Positions 24,863 through 35,081 of a stretch of DNA of 64,000 nt are shown here, piece by piece. The notes beneath the pieces were generated by a model. The model had not been told where the DNA came from. It searched no databases and worked only from the letters and a program-made list of their open reading frames with translations. The position numbers were made by a program, and so were the translations under genes. Numbering within the stretch: position 1 is the stretch's first letter; every line of letters begins with the position of its first letter. This DNA comes from a bacterium (GTDB lineage: Bacteria; Margulisbacteria; Marinamargulisbacteria; JABIPA01): positions 15,784 to 79,783 of the forward strand of contig JABIPA010000059.1 of the NCBI GenBank assembly GCA_018698675.1. Reading direction: 5' to 3'.

Positions 24863-27622
24863 CTAAAAAACAAAAGATAAATCAAATTCAACAAACATTC
24901 CCAAGCCCGCCTCATTTTTTAGTGAGGCAATACCAACATCTAAAGTAAGAGGTACGATTGTATAAATAGGAAGCTCTAGATTAGTAGCAAGCGCTATCCC
25001 GTACGAATAATCTACTATATCGTCTAAAAATGAAGATTTTGAATCCGTTAAAACATCAGAAAATAGCTTTAAATAAACATCACCTATCCCAGTAAAATAA
25101 TCATCACTACTTACGTTTAACCGGAGCACTTGTCTATAGAAAGAGAAGTTGTAGACAGTTCCTTCATCAACATAATAATATCCACCACGCCCCGTTATCC
25201 ACACGGGCTCAGTAAATTTATCAAAATTTTGTACGTCAATATTTAAAGAACTAAACTCTCCTATCCAAGTTGTATTCACCTCAGCAAAGTAGCCCTTAAT
25301 ACCAATAGAGTCTTTCGATAGACTGTATTTTAAACGTCCCGTTGAACGTATATCACTGTCACGATAAGTTCCGGACACTCCAACTCCAACCATTCCATCC
25401 AATTGCCCATAACTATCATATGAAGCAGAGGACCCACCTGCCACGACAATTTCCGACTGATAAAATAGTGAGGCAGCTAACCGCTGAATGCCTTTTGTTT
25501 GAGACCTATGCATTAAGTAACTCGTATCCAGTTCTACTATTGGGTTTTCTAATTCGGAGTTCGAATAAATAGAGGTAGATGTATTAAATGGGACAAACCC
25601 TTTGAAGCCGGCCGAAAATCTCATACCTGACGACGAGAATTGGGAGGAATAAGAAACACTATCAATATGGTCACTACCCATTGCAGTAAACGGTATAAAT
25701 CGTGCAAACGGCATCAATAAACTCAACAAATTTGAAGTAAATGCGTCTTCCTTTTTAATCATCACCTCTTTATTAAAAGATGCTTCATTTTCATGAATAT
25801 TACCCACTGCATTTAATAAATTGTTTTTATAACTAGTTACATCAACAGATTGATTAGCTTCATCATATACATTGTCAGCATCAGTCATTTTTCCTTGGAA
25901 GGAAGCAGAGCGCTCGTCTACCAGGCTGATCGTCTTATTATCTAAATACGGTGTTTTAACGATATGTGTTCCCACAGACCCAGGAGTTAAATAAACTAAC
26001 GCATCCCCAACTTTTCCTGAAAATGCCGCGTAATCACTATTTGTAAGCTTTGAAATTTTTTCTGTACTTAAATCAAGTTCAAAAATGTTCGTCTGTTTAT
26101 TTTTTAAGGCCGAATAAATAATTTTACCTTCTCCCGTACTTGATAAAAAGTATTCTGGGTTAGGCGTGTCCGTTCGTTTTGTGGCTCGAAATGATTGACT
26201 GTCTATCTCATAAAGATCCCATCCAGACGTTGTCGTTTTTCCAATAACAAACCATCTCCCAGTTTCATTTACTATTTCAGAAACTAAAATCGAGCATTCG
26301 CCAAGCTTAGAATGATTTCCGTCCCTAAATTCCCACACCTCTGATTTATCGTGACTGTGATTATCCTTAAAATAGACTATCGAGTCTCCTAAGGGTAAAA
26401 AAGAGCGTAACGATGACTTAAAGAGATCTGTCTCTTCACCAGTCCTCAGATCTTTCTTAATCACTTTTGTAATTCCTCCAAATCCCATAAGGGCCATGTT
26501 TTGATGACCATATTCGAGTTCCCTTAACGCAATATATAAATTCTCATTTAAAACCTGTGGCTTCGCGGCCATGGATGATTTATATTCTCCAAAAACTGTC
26601 TTCTCTCCATTTATTAGCCCAACTTTTACCAACTGATAAGAACGAACTATTTTTCCAGGACTTGGCGCCAACAACCTATTTTCAAACGTAAAAAACGAGT
26701 CATCCGTAATAGGAACAATCCACTGCTTTTCATAAGGAGAATTATCCAAAATCTGCCCATCTTCTATTAAAGGAATCACCAACTCGAACTCACGCCATTC
26801 ACTAAATAACTGGGTTGCACTTTTCCCAAAAACGGTTTCCATTTTATCTTGAAATGAATGTAACGGTGCCAGCGTGTAAAAAAGGTCGTCCAAATTCGCC
26901 AAGGGGTTCCCTGCGACATCATAAATAAACGCGTTCATTTTTTCCTTTCCATATGTGGTTGTTAAATATGAAACGAATCGACTTCCTAACAGATAAGGAA
27001 TACCTCCATACGGATATCTAGAAAAAGGGCTCGTCATATTAGAAATGCTTTTTATTTGATCGGATTCCAACAACTGCCTTGTAATAAGCCTTGTTTTAGG
27101 ATCGCGTAATCGCCCATTTGTTTTCGAGTATGAAGACTCTATACCAACTGACAAGCCTTCCGAAAACCACGAAGGAGTAACTATATTTAAAGAAAATAGT
27201 TCACCGAGAACGATTTGAAGCGGATTATTATTTTTTCTCGTAAGTTGAGCGATATGCCCTACTTCATGAATACCGACATAAGATAACCAATCGTCATATA
27301 AGGCAAACCCATAGGATTCGGGCGGAGATATCCACAATGAAATTTTATTGCTTAATGGATTTGCATAACCATTCGAAATTGAACCAGTATCCTCTAGAAC
27401 CAAGGTCGTCTTAACAATTGGTCCGGCAAATTCTTCGACGACGTTTAATCTTGATTCCAACTTCGTTAACAAATCCGATGCTTTAGCTTCAAACCCTTCG
27501 GTGTAATACAATAAAAAATGAGGAGAGGATATAGCCTCCCACCCCAGAAATGAAGAGGATTGAACAATCCCACACATCCCAACAAATAGACTTATTAAAC
27601 ATACCAGAAAGTATCGATGCAT
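24863..27622 (-). CDS. secreted HExxH zinc-metalloprotease-like outer membrane protein (protease domain + beta-propeller-like middle + C-terminal beta-barrel)
   Basis: A signal peptide is present and the zincin motif is 'VGIHEVGHIAQL'. The middle has TolB/PD40-like repeats ('WDLYEIDSQ', 'TNIFELDLSTEKISKLTNS'). The C-terminal ~300 aa show alternating beta-strand patterns ending in '...FDLSFVF' with a terminal Phe, as in OM beta-barrels and autotransporters. Confidence 0.55.
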   Translation of the reverse strand: MHRYFLVCLISLFVGMCGIVQSSSFLGWEAISSPHFLLYYTEGFEAKASDLLTKLESRLNVVEEFAGPIVKTTLVLEDTGSISNGYANPLSNKISLWISPPESYGFALYDDWLSYVGIHEVGHIAQLTRKNNNPLQIVLGELFSLNIVTPSWFSEGLSVGIESSYSKTNGRLRDPKTRLITRQLLESDQIKSISNMTSPFSRYPYGGIPYLLGSRFVSYLTTTYGKEKMNAFIYDVAGNPLANLDDLFYTLAPLHSFQDKMETVFGKSATQLFSEWREFELVIPLIEDGQILDNSPYEKQWIVPITDDSFFTFENRLLAPSPGKIVRSYQLVKVGLINGEKTVFGEYKSSMAAKPQVLNENLYIALRELEYGHQNMALMGFGGITKVIKKDLRTGEETDLFKSSLRSFLPLGDSIVYFKDNHSHDKSEVWEFRDGNHSKLGECSILVSEIVNETGRWFVIGKTTTSGWDLYEIDSQSFRATKRTDTPNPEYFLSSTGEGKIIYSALKNKQTNIFELDLSTEKISKLTNSDYAAFSGKVGDALVYLTPGSVGTHIVKTPYLDNKTISLVDERSASFQGKMTDADNVYDEANQSVDVTSYKNNLLNAVGNIHENEASFNKEVMIKKEDAFTSNLLSLLMPFARFIPFTAMGSDHIDSVSYSSQFSSSGMRFSAGFKGFVPFNTSTSIYSNSELENPIVELDTSYLMHRSQTKGIQRLAASLFYQSEIVVAGGSSASYDSYGQLDGMVGVGVSGTYRDSDIRSTGRLKYSLSKDSIGIKGYFAEVNTTWIGEFSSLNIDVQNFDKFTEPVWITGRGGYYYVDEGTVYNFSFYRQVLRLNVSSDDYFTGIGDVYLKLFSDVLTDSKSSFLDDIVDYSYGIALATNLELPIYTIVPLTLDVGIASLKNEAGLGMFVEFDLSFVF

Positions 27623-27823: not shown

Positions 27824-28105
27824 ATGTCAGAACAAGGATTTTTAAATTTAAATTCTCTTAAAAGCTTAAATGTTGCAAAACATAATTTATCTAAAATAAG
27901 CAAAGACAAGTTACCTGAAGAAGATGACCAATTTGCTAAAATTCTCGCAAATGTTATTGATAAAGAACTAACAATCGCAGAACAAAGTGATTTACAAGTT
28001 CAACAACATAAACCGTTGGATGTTCAAAAACAATCCAAAAATTATGAAATCGATCCATTAAGTGGGATGGTAAAGTCTCTCAATGATTTTAAAGCTTTTT
28101 CTTAG
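27824..28105 (+). CDS. hypothetical protein
   Basis: 93 aa with an AGGAG RBS upstream. Hydrophilic. Confidence 0.35.
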   Translation: MSEQGFLNLNSLKSLNVAKHNLSKISKDKLPEEDDQFAKILANVIDKELTIAEQSDLQVQQHKPLDVQKQSKNYEIDPLSGMVKSLNDFKAFS

Positions 28106-28126
28106 CTCAATGACCAGTAGCAACTA

Positions 28127-28651
28127 ATGGAAGACGCCAATCAGGTTGAAGCCGCTAGTGAAGCACATCTCCGGTCCACGAAAAAAGCTTATGACTCTAC
28201 AACTGAACAAAAAAAATATGTTTTAGACATTTTAAAAAATACACTAGGGACCGCTTCTCAGGAAGTGAATCGTAGTGATGCTATAAAACAAATAGAAATG
28301 CTGCAGAACGCAACAAACGATTTGGGCTACAAACAAAATTTGTCTGAACTTGCAAATAAGTTGAGAGACGCTCATCCTTCGGATCTATCTAAACTTCATA
28401 AACTCGACCAGTTAGTCGAAAAAACAATGAACGCCTCCCAAGATTCATCTCAAAACCTGAATTCATACGTCCCGAACAGCTTACCTATTACAGCTGATGT
28501 CAAAAATCCATTTGCTGCAAAAGTTCCAGAAGTTTCTTCCTCTAAAAAATCTCACAATGAAGATAAAAAGGAGTCTAAAGGTAAGAACCCCTCAAATAAT
28601 AAAAATGCCAAAAATGGCTTTTTTTCATGGTTTGGATCTTTATTTAGTTAA
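28127..28651 (+). CDS. hypothetical protein
   Basis: 174 aa, charged, co-directional with the upstream 93-aa ORF. It has a basic tail and a C-terminal 'GFFSWFGSLFS'. Confidence 0.35.
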   Translation: MEDANQVEAASEAHLRSTKKAYDSTTEQKKYVLDILKNTLGTASQEVNRSDAIKQIEMLQNATNDLGYKQNLSELANKLRDAHPSDLSKLHKLDQLVEKTMNASQDSSQNLNSYVPNSLPITADVKNPFAAKVPEVSSSKKSHNEDKKESKGKNPSNNKNAKNGFFSWFGSLFS

Positions 28652-28662
28652 ATCTGACATCA

Positions 28663-29769
28663 TTAAAACATCATTACCTGACGAGCCATTTCTCTACCTA
28701 GAGGCGTCAAACTGAGCCGTGACTTATTACGAGTAATTAAGTTTTTCTGAACGGCTCTCTGAACTATTTTTTTTGCAAACCCTGCCGACCAAGCCATATG
28801 ATCAATCATGTTCTCTACGGTATTCTCCTGATCCTCATTGTCCAACCCTTCATGTCCTAAAATTTGAACCAATAGCATTTGAACAGAAAAATTAAGCTTC
28901 TTTTTAAAATGGCTCAACACTTTTGAAACGAGACCTCGTTCTCTTGCAAAAAATAAAGCCATCAAAAATAACACGCCATTCATTGTCGCCATCGAGCCAG
29001 CAATAGAAGCATCTAAAACGTAAGCCATACCATACCCCAACACGGCAGATGCGACGCCTACCGCCATACTTATGCCAATCATTCTGGATAACTTAGTCGT
29101 CAATAAAAAAGCGGTTGCAGGAGGAGCAATGATTAACGCCACAACCAAAACAGACCCAGCAACTTCGAATGCCCCAACGGTCGTAACACTTGTCACCGTC
29201 ATTAACCCGTAGTGAATTAAAACAGGAGAAAAACCCAATGACGTAGCCAATCCTTTATCAAAGGTTGCCAACTTTAACTCTTTATAAAATAGCAGTAAAC
29301 CAACAACATTAATCAACGATATTGTTCCCATCATCCATAACCCAACGGGACCAAGATCGAGCCCTCCAATATCCATCCTGTGGAAAGGAGCTAGTGCAAG
29401 CTCTCCTAATAAAACTGCATCTAAATCAATATGAACATTTCCCGCATATTTGCTAATTAATATGACTCCTATGGAAAAAAATAATGGAAACACTAAACCA
29501 ATGGCAGCATCTTTTTTTAACCTATTCGTGTTAATCAAAACCTCCGTTAAGGTAACAGTCAAAACACCAGTCAAAGCGGCTCCAATAATTAAAAGAGGCG
29601 AATCCAAGGTCTTTACCATAAAAAACATCACAACAATCCCAAGTAAAATAGCGTGACTGATTGCATCACTCATTAGCGCAACTCCACGCAAAACCAAGAA
29701 TACCCCCGGAATTGCACAAGAAAAAGCGGTTAACGCCGCAATTAAAATAATTTCAGTTTGAAAACTCAT
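28663..29769 (-). CDS. metal ABC transporter permease (YtgD/ZnuB/MntB family) with C-terminal winged-helix (DtxR-like) extension
   Basis: An 8-TM permease core (~275 aa) is followed by ~90 aa reading 'LVQILGHEGL...VENMIDHMAWSAGFAKKIVQRAVQKNLITR..SRLSLTPLGREMARQV', an HTH plus wing. Confidence 0.8.
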   Translation of the reverse strand: MSFQTEIILIAALTAFSCAIPGVFLVLRGVALMSDAISHAILLGIVVMFFMVKTLDSPLLIIGAALTGVLTVTLTEVLINTNRLKKDAAIGLVFPLFFSIGVILISKYAGNVHIDLDAVLLGELALAPFHRMDIGGLDLGPVGLWMMGTISLINVVGLLLFYKELKLATFDKGLATSLGFSPVLIHYGLMTVTSVTTVGAFEVAGSVLVVALIIAPPATAFLLTTKLSRMIGISMAVGVASAVLGYGMAYVLDASIAGSMATMNGVLFLMALFFARERGLVSKVLSHFKKKLNFSVQMLLVQILGHEGLDNEDQENTVENMIDHMAWSAGFAKKIVQRAVQKNLITRNKSRLSLTPLGREMARQVMMF

Positions 29770-30881
29770 GCCTGCATCCCCACTAATAAAGATCTTACGT
29801 ATTTGTGGCCCTTAATTGTTAGCCCCCAATGTTTATATGCCGTCGAATGAATATAACCACTCTCTTCCAATTTCCTAATAACCGAATCCAAACTAGCACC
29901 TCCAACGGATCTCAACGCCTGAATATCATGAGCATGAGTGACATCGTCGTGACCTTCTGAAAGATAAAACAGATTAGTTAAAAACGTATCTTCCTTGACT
30001 TGCTTTTGATTCGATTTATTCCTCTTCCATGCCCAAAAAAGGCCACGATTTGGAGCAAACCCTAATGAAGCAAAAACAATAGTACTAATAGCAACAACTA
30101 TAACGGGGCCAGTAGGTAAGTTATTAATCTGACTACTAAACATAACTCCGACTAATCCTGCTAATGCTCCAAAAATAGCAGCTAAAACAACCATCATTCC
30201 TAACCTATCCGTCCATTGTCGAGCGGCGGCAGCTGGAGCAATTATCATCGCACTCATCAAAACAACCCCAACCGTTTGCAACCCAATAACGATGCTACAA
30301 ACAATCAAACTCGTTAAAAATATATCTAATCGTTTTTGAGGAAACCCCAATGTTGCTGCAAACTCAGGATTAAACGACACTAACTTAAATTCCTTCCAAA
30401 AAAGAGTAAGTACCGCCAAAATGACAACGCCAAAAATTGTCATCACAATGACATCCTCTTCTAATAAAGTTGCTGCATTTCCGAATAGAAACCTGTTAAG
30501 CCCAGCCTTATTAGCGGTTGGAAGTCGTTGAATAATTGTAAGAAGAACCATTCCGAATCCGAAAAATACAGACAACACGATCCCGAGTGCGGCATCTTTT
30601 TTAAGAGAGGTATACTCCGTAATTAAAAACATGCCTAGAGATGCCAATATTCCAGAAATAATTGCGCCTATTAATAATACTAATAGACTTTTACTGTACG
30701 TTAACATGAAGGCTACCGCAATTCCTGGCAAAGCGGCATGAGATATAGCATCTCCCAACAAGCTTTGCTTCCTTAGAACGGCAAAACTACCCAAGGCACC
30801 CGAAACAATCCCTAATACCAACGTGCCTAATACAACTGTGCGGACCGTGTAATCAAAAAACAAATCATGAATAAGAGTCAT
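29766..30881 (-). CDS. metal ABC transporter permease (YtgC-like) with C-terminal winged-helix extension
   Basis: The permease core is followed by 'LTNLFYLSEG...IQALRSVGGASLDSVIRKLEESGYIHS...WGLTIKGHKYV', a wHTH. It overlaps the downstream permease gene by 4 nt. Confidence 0.8.
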   Translation of the reverse strand: MTLIHDLFFDYTVRTVVLGTLVLGIVSGALGSFAVLRKQSLLGDAISHAALPGIAVAFMLTYSKSLLVLLIGAIISGILASLGMFLITEYTSLKKDAALGIVLSVFFGFGMVLLTIIQRLPTANKAGLNRFLFGNAATLLEEDVIVMTIFGVVILAVLTLFWKEFKLVSFNPEFAATLGFPQKRLDIFLTSLIVCSIVIGLQTVGVVLMSAMIIAPAAAARQWTDRLGMMVVLAAIFGALAGLVGVMFSSQINNLPTGPVIVVAISTIVFASLGFAPNRGLFWAWKRNKSNQKQVKEDTFLTNLFYLSEGHDDVTHAHDIQALRSVGGASLDSVIRKLEESGYIHSTAYKHWGLTIKGHKYVRSLLVGMQA

Positions 30882-30883
30882 TA

Positions 30884-31648
30884 CTAGAGGGCGTCCAAAT
30901 TAATAGTAGTATCTTTTCCAACAAAAGGTGTTTTTCCGCTGTACGCCTGACTCAAGTTTTCTTGAGTTATTATATCTTTGACCGGTCCCATCGCTATTTT
31001 TCTAACGTTTAACAATAGTGCCCAATCAAAATAATCTTTTAGGGTTTGCAAATCGTGATGAACAACTATAACCGTTTTTTCTTTTCCTCTTAATTCTTTT
31101 AAAAGTGCCACAATTGCTTTTTCGGTCTTAGCATCAACCCCCACAAACGGTTCATCCATAAAATAAATTTGAGAATCTTGAGCCAGTGCTCGTGCTAAAA
31201 ACACGCGTTGTTGTTGACCTCCAGATAATTGATTTATCTGACGATATGCAAAATCCGCCATCCCTACTTTTTCAAGACATTCCATAGCTATTTCCACATC
31301 TCGTTTACCTGGCCGTTTAAACCAACCTAAATGACCATAACGCCCCATCAATACAACATCTAACGCATTCGTAGGAAAGTCCCAGTCGACGCTTCCGCGT
31401 TGAGGAACATATCCGACTGAACGAAAAGACTTTTGATAGACATTCCCGTTAATAAAAACACTACCTGCAGCGGGCTTTATTAAGCCTAATATGGCTTTTA
31501 TCAGTGTCGTCTTCCCTGCCCCATTTGGTCCTACAATAGCCATCAATACCCCGTGAGGAACCTTGATATCGATATCCCATAGAACGGGCTTCTCTTTATA
31601 AGCGACTGTTAAGTCACGAACCTCTACTGCAGGAATGATTGAATTCAT
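30884..31648 (-). CDS. metal ABC transporter ATP-binding protein (ZnuC/YtgB-like)
   Basis: The Walker A is 'GPNGAGKTTL', the ABC signature is 'LSGGQQQRV', and the Walker B is 'IYFMDEP'. Confidence 0.9.
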   Translation of the reverse strand: MNSIIPAVEVRDLTVAYKEKPVLWDIDIKVPHGVLMAIVGPNGAGKTTLIKAILGLIKPAAGSVFINGNVYQKSFRSVGYVPQRGSVDWDFPTNALDVVLMGRYGHLGWFKRPGKRDVEIAMECLEKVGMADFAYRQINQLSGGQQQRVFLARALAQDSQIYFMDEPFVGVDAKTEKAIVALLKELRGKEKTVIVVHHDLQTLKDYFDWALLLNVRKIAMGPVKDIITQENLSQAYSGKTPFVGKDTTINLDAL

Positions 31649-31649
31649 T

Positions 31650-32810
31650 TTAAAACCTTACATTTGCGATTAGGAGAAGTCCACTAACGTCAGTTTCTTG
31701 GCCAGCGGTTTCCTTTTCATAGTTATCCAACACCCATTCTGCTTTAAGCAAAACATTTTCTTTATGAAAGTACCCAATTCCTAGCTCGTATCGAGTTATC
31801 GTTTGGTCCGGAGAAACAGTTGCTCCAAAATTAAACGCTGGGTTTGGTAGAGTGGAGGACATTCCTGCTCCTGAACCATCGTTATCTTCTGGTATCCAAG
31901 TTGATACTCTCCCTGAAACAAACATATCTCCTACATTATGTCTTGCTTCTGCAATAATAGACGTAACCTTGTCTTCTGTTCCATCATGCTCATCCCCATA
32001 AGTTAATTGAGAATAAGATCCAATCAATTCAGTTGATGTTCCAATTATCGAGATACCGTCAACCATCCACCCTTGGAAATCTGACGAAAAGCCAGATGTG
32101 GCGTTTTTAATATCATTGCTTCTCATATATGTTCCACTTAATTCAGTTTTAATTTCTTCGATAAATAAGGACTGCCCGATTACCAATTCAAATTGACCGT
32201 CTGGATTCGTCGCTGATTCATCCGTACCATTCGAAATTGCCAACGTAGACGTCCCTACGGATGAATCCCAATTAATCATTGCTCCCAATGTATTCAATGT
32301 TCCCATTGGTCCTGCAAAGGCACTGTATAACAAAGGATTAATTATTAAGTTATTGTTAAATGTATCCGCATTATTTGATAACATTCCTGTTTGTTGTCCA
32401 AAGGGAGTATCATAAGACCCTACAACCACAGTTACTGTTCTCGCTCTATTTGTATATTCAATACCTATATCTGTTAACTCAGCCCCGGGACCAGGGAACC
32501 CGTATGTTCCATTTCCTGGGCTTGTTTGTAATTGAAGATAGGCCTTAATTCCTGGCGCTAATTTCGTCTCAAAATCAATGTTTGCAGCATAATCAAATTG
32601 ATATCGATTAGTAGCTGAGTTTGTACTTTGGGTAAGAAGATTTAATCCTCCTAAAATCGACCCACCAACGCTTACATTATTCATAAAATCACTAATTTTT
32701 ACGCGCTCTTCTAGTGGAAATAATCCAGATACTTCTAAATTTGCCATTGTAGGGCTTACCAAAATAGCTAGTGACGCCGCCAATATTCCTATATTTTTTA
32801 AATTTTTCAT
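31650..32810 (-). CDS. outer-membrane beta-barrel (porin-like) protein embedded in metal-uptake operon
   Basis: A signal peptide ('AILVSPTMA') is present. Amphipathic beta-strand periodicity runs throughout. The aromatic C-terminus '...LLLIANVRF' has a terminal Phe. The gene is tightly packed between the SBP and ATPase genes. Confidence 0.5.
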   Translation of the reverse strand: MKNLKNIGILAASLAILVSPTMANLEVSGLFPLEERVKISDFMNNVSVGGSILGGLNLLTQSTNSATNRYQFDYAANIDFETKLAPGIKAYLQLQTSPGNGTYGFPGPGAELTDIGIEYTNRARTVTVVVGSYDTPFGQQTGMLSNNADTFNNNLIINPLLYSAFAGPMGTLNTLGAMINWDSSVGTSTLAISNGTDESATNPDGQFELVIGQSLFIEEIKTELSGTYMRSNDIKNATSGFSSDFQGWMVDGISIIGTSTELIGSYSQLTYGDEHDGTEDKVTSIIAEARHNVGDMFVSGRVSTWIPEDNDGSGAGMSSTLPNPAFNFGATVSPDQTITRYELGIGYFHKENVLLKAEWVLDNYEKETAGQETDVSGLLLIANVRF

Positions 32811-32898: not shown

Positions 32899-33945
32899 CT
32901 AGTGAGTATGATTATCTCCGCCATGATGATGATGGCCTTGTTCAATACTTTTTTTACGTGGAGCCAATCCATTTAATATCGTAGTCGTATTATGCTCAAC
33001 CATTCCAATATAAGTCCCTTCAGCTGTTCCTGGATTTCCCATTGCGTCTGAAAATAACTCGCCACCAATTTTAACATCCCACCCACGTGACTGAGTTGCT
33101 CTTTGAACGGCTTCAATATTTCTTTTTGAAATCGATGATTCAATGAAAATGGCTGGGATTTTGTTATCTACTATATAAGTCGCTAAATTTTGAATATCTC
33201 TCGTACCCGCTTCAGATTCCGTACTTATCCCCATCAATCCTTTTACAACGAAACCATAAGCTAGTCCGTAATAATTAAAAGCATCATGAGCTGTAACTAA
33301 AACACGTTGCTCTTTAGGAATCATATCCGTTTTTTCCTCAATCCACGTGTTCAACTTATTTAATTTTGTTAAATAGGCCGCCTTGTTCCTTAAAAACGCT
33401 TCTTTATTTTCAGGATCTAGTGTTATCAACGTATCTCCAACGGCATCTACAGCATACGCCCATAACTCAACGTCAAACCACACATGAGGATCAAATTGCC
33501 CTTCGAATTCAGGTGGTTTTTTTAGTTTATCTTTAGGAATACGTTCGGCAACAGCGACTGTTGGTTTCTGTTTATTTAGCTTTTTAAAAATGTCCCCCAT
33601 TTTGGCTTCTAAGTGTAATCCATTATAAAAAATAATATTTGCGTCTGATAATTTCCGTACATCTCCTTCGCTTGCCCGATAAAGATGAGGGTCCACTCCA
33701 GGCCCCATTAATCCAACAACGTCAACATATTCTCCACCAACATTGGTTACTATGTCAGCTATCATTCCGGTTGTTGCAACCGCGTGTACTAAATTCTCAT
33801 TCTTTGTTCCTGATTTGTCATCGTTACATCCAAACAATCCTAAACTAACAATTCCAATCATTCCTGCTCCGATCAAAAATGACGTCGCTTTTAAAAACGT
33901 ATTCAACGTAAAAAATTGTTCTCTTTTTTGATTTATATTTTTCAT
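32899..33945 (-). CDS. metal ABC transporter substrate-binding protein (ZnuA/TroA/YtgA cluster A-I) with His-rich C-terminus
   Basis: A lipoprotein signal 'LGLFGCN' is present. The fold is TroA-like. The C-terminal tail is 'GHHHHGGDNHTH'. Confidence 0.85.
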   Translation of the reverse strand: MKNINQKREQFFTLNTFLKATSFLIGAGMIGIVSLGLFGCNDDKSGTKNENLVHAVATTGMIADIVTNVGGEYVDVVGLMGPGVDPHLYRASEGDVRKLSDANIIFYNGLHLEAKMGDIFKKLNKQKPTVAVAERIPKDKLKKPPEFEGQFDPHVWFDVELWAYAVDAVGDTLITLDPENKEAFLRNKAAYLTKLNKLNTWIEEKTDMIPKEQRVLVTAHDAFNYYGLAYGFVVKGLMGISTESEAGTRDIQNLATYIVDNKIPAIFIESSISKRNIEAVQRATQSRGWDVKIGGELFSDAMGNPGTAEGTYIGMVEHNTTTILNGLAPRKKSIEQGHHHHGGDNHTH

Positions 33946-33963: not shown

Positions 33964-34659
33964 CTAATTTATTGGGTCTACCCAAATATTTTGACAAATT
34001 TTAGTACTCAAACTCGATGTTTTTTCACCAATTCTAACCTGTACTGTTCCATCAAATTCCAATATTCCGGAAACAGTAATCAACACCCCTATTGTTATTC
34101 CTTCGTTCTCAAGATGTTCTAATAATTCCGAGTCAAAATTACTAACTCTTACAATTTTACAAACATCCCCTTTTTTACTCTCTGACAAAGGTATTGCAGT
34201 CTTATGTGTTGGAATGATTCCGTTTTTGTCAGGAATAGGCGCTCCATGAGGGTCGAATTGTGGGAACCCTAATTTCTTATCCATTTTATTTATAAGATAG
34301 TCTGAAGCAAAATGTTCCAAAACTTCTGCTTCTTCATGCACCATATTTCGAGGAATATCTAAGTATTCATGAAGATAAAGCTCAATTAATCGATGACGCC
34401 GGATAACCAATTTCCCCTTTTTGATTCCTTCGGGTAATAAACGAACACCCTTGTATGGAATGTAGTCTAATAATTCTTTGGTCGCTAATTTCTTAACCAT
34501 TTCACTTACGGCGGCAGACGTTACTCCAAGTTTATTTGCAATATCTTGAGTTTTTACGGAACCGGAAGACACATTCATCAATTTATAAATTGCCTTTAAA
34601 TAATCCTCGGTACTTATGGACTCTTTCTTTGTTTCATCGGTAATTTTTATAATGCTCAT
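33964..34659 (-). CDS. DtxR/MntR-family metal-dependent transcriptional regulator (with C-terminal FeoA/SH3-like domain)
   Basis: The N-terminal HTH is 'TEDYLKAIYKL...VKTQDIANKLGVTSAAVSEMVKKLATKELLDYIPYKGVRLLPEGIKKG'. The protein is 231 aa. Confidence 0.8.
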   Translation of the reverse strand: MSIIKITDETKKESISTEDYLKAIYKLMNVSSGSVKTQDIANKLGVTSAAVSEMVKKLATKELLDYIPYKGVRLLPEGIKKGKLVIRRHRLIELYLHEYLDIPRNMVHEEAEVLEHFASDYLINKMDKKLGFPQFDPHGAPIPDKNGIIPTHKTAIPLSESKKGDVCKIVRVSNFDSELLEHLENEGITIGVLITVSGILEFDGTVQVRIGEKTSSLSTKICQNIWVDPIN

Positions 34660-34697: not shown

Positions 34698-34719
34698 AAG
34701 TTTAAGCATGCTTAAACTT
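34698..34719. promoter_or_regulatory. 22-bp perfect palindrome (candidate DtxR-family operator) upstream of the regulator/ytg-like operon
   Basis: 'aagtttaagcatgcttaaactt' is its own reverse complement. It lies ~40 bp upstream of the DtxR-family gene start at 34659. Confidence 0.45.
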
Positions 34720-35081
34720 TTTGTCAAGCACCCTTTATTTAATAGTTGGGAATAACCAATAAATAAATTTTTGCCTTAAGTACAGATTAATTATCCAATT
34801 TTTTACAGAGGTTTTTAAAGCGAAGATATAAAAGCAATACCAACGTCGAGGCTTATTTTCTTGGCATCTCAGTGAATACATTTATATATAGCTATAGAGG
34901 TGTTTTTTATAATACAGATCCTGAAAAAATGCAGAAAAGAGCTCTTACGTTATAGATGCCTATTCACTAATTCGATAGTATTCTTAGTTTTTAATAAAAA
35001 AATCGTGTTCGAAACGAAGTTCGTGAAGAAAAAAACGTTCATGTTGAAAGGAACCTAATTGAGTGTCCTCAACCTACTGTT

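Follow-up and report, generated by a model that had tools for sequence, protein, structure and literature searches.

The crossing of the outer membrane by small divalent metals at very low concentration is a poorly understood process. A review of Mn import names few outer-membrane components, i.e. MnoP, OmpU and the TonB-dependent MnoT, and calls their role underappreciated (PMC9334652). MnoP from Bradyrhizobium japonicum is an outer-membrane channel that is repressed by Mn and required for Mn2+ uptake with high affinity (Hohle et al. 2011, summarised in PMC9334652 and PMC9653421). It moves Mn2+ in proteoliposomes and is co-regulated with mntH (PMC9334652, PMC9653421). In Geobacter and Desulfuromonas, a predicted porin named psp, which has a Fur box in front of it and weakly resembles PF07396, was proposed for Fe2+ uptake (PMC545781, Rodionov et al. 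2004). Here, we describe a porin gene that lies inside a metal ATP-binding cassette (ABC) transporter operon of a bacterium assigned to Marinamargulisbacteria. The analysed stretch, called the window in the following, comprises 64,000 nucleotides (assembly GCA_018698675.1, contig JABIPA010000059.1, positions 15,784 to 79,783). The porin probably serves a Tro-type (TroA/ABC-3) importer of divalent metals as its outer-membrane component and would be metal-repressed and cation-passing. The same type of transporter is encoded by troABCDR of Treponema pallidum and by chlamydial ytgABCD, both with a TroA-like substrate-binding protein (SBP), an ABC ATPase, two ABC-3 permeases and a DtxR-family regulator. 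To our knowledge, neither the tro nor the ytg operon contains a porin gene.

The 386-aa open reading frame (ORF) of the porin fills positions 31650..32810 on the reverse strand exactly and is recorded at NCBI as HOG98_07140. It starts with ATG, preceded by AAGGAAG-N5. The protein begins with a Sec signal peptide (MKNLKNIGILAASLAILVSPTMA, followed by NLE) and ends in ...LLLIANVRF. The terminal Phe, a C-terminal aromatic residue in the manner of a β-signal, is found in at least 90% of the family alignment, which holds 36 clear homologues and thus 37 members with the window protein. AlphaFold2 was run with this alignment and gave a mean predicted local distance difference test score of 85.5 and a predicted template modelling score of 0.82. 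The model shows 16 antiparallel β-strands in a closed barrel, which is the classical 16-strand porin fold. The loop between strands 5 and 6 comprises 38 residues (~135–172) with two short helices and is folded inward; as modelled, it is the L3 arrangement known from classical porins. The monomer was modelled, and the protein presumably forms a homotrimer. An extra segment directly after the signal peptide (NLEVSGLFPLEERVKISDFMNN, residues ~24–45), modelled at low confidence, occurs in the window porin and an 88%-identical relative only and is missing from the other family members.

A first-pass annotation of the window had proposed an outer-membrane β-barrel and advised a barrel topology prediction. 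The signal peptide, the ...ANVRF end and the confident 16-strand model all support this proposal, and the result is an outer-membrane barrel rather than a soluble or periplasmic protein. The window porin had no Pfam match at E ≤ 0.1 and no NCBIfam match, and PDB sequence searches with the porin and with the family profile returned chance matches only. These blank results would suit a protein that is in truth soluble or periplasmic and was wrongly modelled, but next to the features named above such an error is extremely improbable. A TonB-dependent transporter was rejected as well: such a protein would have a 22-strand barrel, an N-terminal plug and a TonB box, and the porin is 16-stranded and plug-less.

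The porin gene takes third place among six genes on the same strand, in the order mntR, TroA-like SBP, porin, ATPase, permease 1 and permease 2. The features of the operon are as follows:

34698..34719, no strand: 22-bp perfect palindrome AAGTTTAAGCATGCTTAAACTT, candidate MntR/DtxR-family operator, overlapping the promoter spacer and the −10 element
33964..34659, reverse strand: MntR/DtxR-family regulator with a C-terminal FeoA/SH3-like domain (Pfam PF01325, PF02742, PF04023)
32899..33945, reverse strand: TroA-like (ZnuA-type) cluster A-I metal-binding protein (PF01297, E 1.1e-78)
31650..32810, reverse strand: porin gene; Sec signal peptide, 16-strand OprP-fold barrel, conserved L3-like loop, C-terminal ...ANVRF
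30884..31648, reverse strand: ABC ATPase of the Mn/Fe type (PF00005; best NCBIfam model Mn/Fe ABC ATPase, below cut-off)
29766..30881, reverse strand: ABC-3 permease 1 with a C-terminal extension of ~100 aa (PF00950, E 7.6e-73)
28663..29769, reverse strand: ABC-3 permease 2 with a C-terminal extension of ~100 aa (PF00950, E 8.3e-44)

The junctions measure, in gene order, 18 nt, 88 nt, 1 nt and 2 nt, followed by a 4-nt overlap. Because the ATPase start codon sits 1 nt past the porin stop, co-transcription of the porin with the flanking metal-transport genes, previously rated as likely, is strongly suggested by the layout of the genes. Within the 88-nt spacer between the SBP and porin genes, no internal promoter-like or terminator-like site was found, and its structure was not unusual (z = −0.68). 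An Rfam search across the whole window returned one tRNA and nothing more. The GC content of the porin ORF equals that of its neighbours. A recent horizontal insertion of the gene was rejected on this ground and since the association with the transporter is old and widespread.

The SBP was nearest to T. pallidum TroA (1toa, E 1.5e-93), with the motifs DPHLY, DPHVW, TAHDAF and FSDAMG aligned; these presumably hold the His, His, His and Asp ligands of TroA. The operon had been described as ytg-like, but it is Tro-like. The chlamydial comparison is an analogy only, because the SBP is closest to the Treponema protein and a Chlamydia label was absent among the porin relatives found. The SBP further carries a possible lipobox (LFGC, residues ~37–40) and, past the TroA-aligned region, a His-rich C-terminal tail (EQGHHHHGGDNHTH, 32899–32940, reverse strand). 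The permease extensions (29766–30080 in permease 1 and 28663–28965 in permease 2, reverse strand) are kept in most related operons as judged by tblastn coverage. The one of permease 1 is faintly similar to the DtxR N-terminal winged helix at sub-threshold level (PF01325, E 0.019; NF003025, E 0.022), and weak winged-helix matches only were obtained for that of permease 2. The extensions are cytoplasmic, and the similarity seen in permease 1 calls to mind the chlamydial YtgC-YtgR fusion.

The sole strong σ70-like site on the operon strand is TTGACA-17-TAAACT at 34727..34699 (reverse strand), upstream of mntR, and the 22-bp palindrome lies on it. The palindrome is present as a single copy in the window, with 0 copies expected by chance. 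Its core, TTARG-N4-CYTAA, had 11 exact matches in 418 kb of sequence (window and homologous loci, the latter numbered with the prefix L), nine of them immediately upstream of the operon. With further boxes at the operon start in L101, L102 and L103, the element was found at this place in 12 loci altogether (the window and 11 others). In L024, L025 and L103, the box stands immediately before the porin gene. Core-like matches at window positions 52187, 60181, 13335 and 13586 were dismissed as chance, as they are intragenic or have an N6 spacing. With mntR in the operon, for which MntR-type NCBIfam models rank best (below cut-off), and a predicted operator on the promoter, a metal-responsive repressor would control the channel along with its cognate inner-membrane importer.

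Two porin-first operons, L031 and L032, are without mntR and have a Fur-like palindrome at about −39 of the porin gene (TATTGAGAATAATTCTCAATA in L031, gene at 5923, and TGTTGAGAACCAATCTCAACA in L032, gene at 5926), which has the look of a Fur-family 7-1-7 box. Judging by these motifs, the regulator may have been swapped with the target operon unchanged. When the operator position-weight matrix was applied to stand-alone homologues, only L026 scored well (15.6). Similar TTAGG palindromes, deviating or differently spaced, were seen at about −50 of the stand-alone homologues L004 and L018. The palindromes in these three loci are suggestive of co-regulation and were not used as evidence.

For a wider comparison, the six window proteins were searched with tblastn against 32 loci from species-representative genomes. 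A homologue of the porin was directly beside the same metal transporter in 14 of the 32 loci, and additional contig look-ups showed the linkage in 9 of 10 informative cases. Thus, the gene is far from being absent from the operon in all relatives, a result that would have spoken against the first-pass annotation. The linked neighbours are mntR, an SBP of the ZnuA type, the ATPase and a pair of ABC-3 permeases. Such loci number 20 or more and come from several uncultured phyla; the metagenome-assembled genomes (MAGs) concerned bear the labels Marinamargulisbacteria, Zixibacteria, Ignavibacteria, Calditrichaceae and Cytophagia. Two gene orders occur. The first, regulator-SBP-porin-ATPase-permease-permease, was found in the window, L001, L013, L021, L029, L101 and L106. 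The second, regulator-porin-SBP-ATPase-permease-permease, was found in L005, L006, L012, L020, L024, L025, L027, L030–L032, L034, L102, L103, L108 and L109. L104 and L105 have a divergent mntR. The loci with the first order form one clade in a neighbour-joining tree, and those with the second are interleaved with stand-alone members; therefore, the SBP-porin-ATPase order is the form that an older association has taken in one lineage, and porin-first is the usual and wider arrangement. An insertion between the SBP and ATPase genes, as the locus was originally described, is correct for the gene order in the window, but the more widespread order places the porin first.

The barrel model, the conserved linkage to the operon and the conserved DtxR/MntR-type operator at its start all support a dedicated outer-membrane metal channel. 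Such a channel would work as follows. Under metal-replete conditions, metal-bound MntR would sit on the palindrome and shut the promoter. Under metal scarcity, the operon would be derepressed, and porin, SBP, ATPase and permeases would be transcribed from one promoter. The porin, which is strongly acidic and has an invariant constriction loop rich in Asn, Asp and Thr, would let hydrated divalent cations pass the outer membrane. The TroA-like SBP, possibly a lipoprotein, would catch the ion in the periplasm and hand it to the ABC permease, and the ABC-3/ATPase complex would import it.

Structurally, the porin is closest to OprP and OprO from Pseudomonas (PF07396; PDB 2o4v and 4rjw), although the identity is 13–17%. 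OprP has an arginine ladder (PDB 2o4v title) and a Lys cluster, whereas the porin family has conserved Asp, Glu and Asn instead and stands in a metal rather than a phosphate context. As to membership in Porin_O_P (PF07396), neither a profile match nor a basic lumen (oriented by strand periodicity) was found. Throughout the family, 16 conserved positions are acidic and four are basic, and no His or Cys is conserved. The net charge is −25 for the window porin and ranges from −10 to −41 over all 37 members. An anion or phosphate channel, as its nearest structural relatives would suggest, is therefore hardly credible: the PF07396 match is absent at the threshold given above, identity to OprP does not exceed 17%, conserved charges are mainly acidic, the neighbourhood contains no pst or pho genes, and the gene is part of a metal operon with mntR.

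When 1.84 billion representative proteins were searched with the family profile, 192 sequences were obtained at E ≤ 0.001 and 117 at E ≤ 1e-30; therefore, the family does not merge at sequence level with the large OprP and general-porin families. Weak PF07396 matches were obtained for nine of the 37 members (best E 6.5e-06) and BBP2 matches for three, and no OprP or OprO chain was found among the PDB sequences with the family profile. In their source records, members are named 'hypothetical protein', 'porin' and once 'OprO/OprP family'. The taxonomic labels of the relatives are Marinamargulisbacteria, Margulisiibacteriota, Zixibacteria, Ignavibacteria, Calditrichaceae, Cytophagia, Nitrospirota and Gemmatimonadota. 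No account of the family was found when the literature was searched for porins within Mn/Zn ABC operons or in Margulisbacteria. It is a small, discrete and previously undescribed family and a family-level variant of metal-regulated outer-membrane channels with an OprP-type fold.

The family alignment contains 22 invariant columns. The L3-like loop is its best-conserved segment (72% compared with 51% overall), with the invariant residues D134, N146, N147, N158, N173 and T174. Together with D73, N77, D114, N194, T196 and N202, they form the proposed invariant Asn/Asp/Thr/Glu pathway. This acidic chemistry without the basic ladder of OprP fits the passage of hard divalent cations. A bolder and still speculative reading is that the family is a mirror image of OprP: the 16-strand scaffold would be shared, with the arginine ladder replaced by the invariant Asn/Asp/Thr/Glu pathway for selective binding and passage of nanomolar Mn2+ (or Fe2+) into the Tro-type ABC importer, as an ancient operon-encoded three-compartment module of several uncultured diderm phyla. 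Concerning the metal itself, Mn2+ is the first choice with about an even chance, and it is perhaps Fe2+ or Zn2+. The preference for Mn2+ is due to the regulator and the ATPase, for which MntR and Mn/Fe models, respectively, gave the best scores, although below the curated cut-offs.

The gene could also encode a non-selective general diffusion porin that travels with the metal operon and raises permeability generally, without any preference for metals. This is rather unlikely. Loops of general porins diverge fast, whereas the internal loop and the next one are the best conserved here across phyla, next to the invariant columns. The family is very small and has sharp limits, unlike the families of major porins, and its repeated place right behind a metalloregulator operator points to expression on need.

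Several observations count against a dedicated metal channel. Many general porins are likewise acidic with a conserved L3, and charge alone is no proof of selectivity; moreover, lumen-facing residues were assigned by strand periodicity and not from coordinates. A homologue stands alone among unrelated genes in 18 of the 32 genome loci, with neighbours that include chemotaxis, TruB/RibF and beta-lactamase-family genes, so that the tie between the family and the transporter is not an obligate one. Conversely, none of 65 other TroA-like loci sampled from metagenomes carries this porin family, so the transporter can do without it. Zn, Mn and Fe have all been reported in TroA-type sites. The His/His/His/Asp site of the SBP is compatible with these three alike and thus does not settle the metal. 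Finally, every member of the family comes from an uncultured organism (MAGs or metagenomes).

An unexpected set of genes was seen in L106 (homologous operon P0012), where exbB-exbD-tonB (1128–2930) lies between mntR and the SBP gene, upstream of the plug-less porin. These genes would agree with a porin that is TonB-linked or passes a metal chelate or metallophore rather than free ions. Given the 16-strand porin fold without a plug domain, the bare metal ions bound by TroA-type cluster A-I binding proteins in their structures and the occurrence of TonB genes in one locus only, this is very unlikely.

MnoP is encoded by blr0095 and corresponds to KEGG K16080. As a purely functional analogy, a channel passing divalent cations under an MntR-type repressor resembles MnoP in two respects. 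A metal-responsive repressor controls, or in the window is predicted to control, the channel together with an inner-membrane importer for the same metal, and both proteins are proposed for high-affinity entry of divalent metals under scarcity. The components differ: MnoP is under Mur (Fur family), goes along with mntH (NRAMP) and is not described in an ABC operon, whereas the window porin has a DtxR/MntR-type regulator and a Tro-type ABC importer, and its gene is within the operon. The psp porins share with the family of the window porin the weak PF07396 similarity (seen in some members), the metalloregulator boxes in front and the proposed metal uptake; however, psp is a stand-alone gene under Fur, and its role is a prediction only. 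No members from Geobacter, Desulfuromonas or Aquifex were among the porin relatives found. The psp porins may be analogous and probably belong to a different family.

The locus defines a compact, well-delimited family of porins for whose role in metal entry across the outer membrane the genomic evidence is unusually strong, namely, a conserved place in the operon in two gene orders, the conserved operator of a metalloregulator and, on a scaffold of the OprP type, a polar and acidic constriction loop that is invariant. It would improve the annotation of metal acquisition in abundant uncultured lineages of marine waters and sediments, e.g. Marinamargulisbacteria and Zixibacteria.

Two of the TroA-like operons without this porin, L043 (4028–4888) and L063 (3948–4736, reverse strand), contain an unrelated barrel of the PF13557 family (Phenol_MetA_deg) beside the SBP gene. 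These may represent a convergent and recurring recruitment of outer-membrane channels to Tro-type metal operons. Fur-family regulator genes lie upstream in two TroA-like loci, just upstream in L043 and also in L049. In the window, two short ORFs of low complexity (93 and 174 aa; 27824–28651, forward strand), which are rich in Lys, Ser and Gln, converge on the end of the operon and had no family match. Just downstream of the operon, 24863–27622 (reverse strand) encodes a secreted protein of 919 aa with a Peptidase_MA_2 match below cut-off (E 2.5e-4). It ends in ...FDLSFVF and might be an outer-membrane-anchored or barrel-containing protease.
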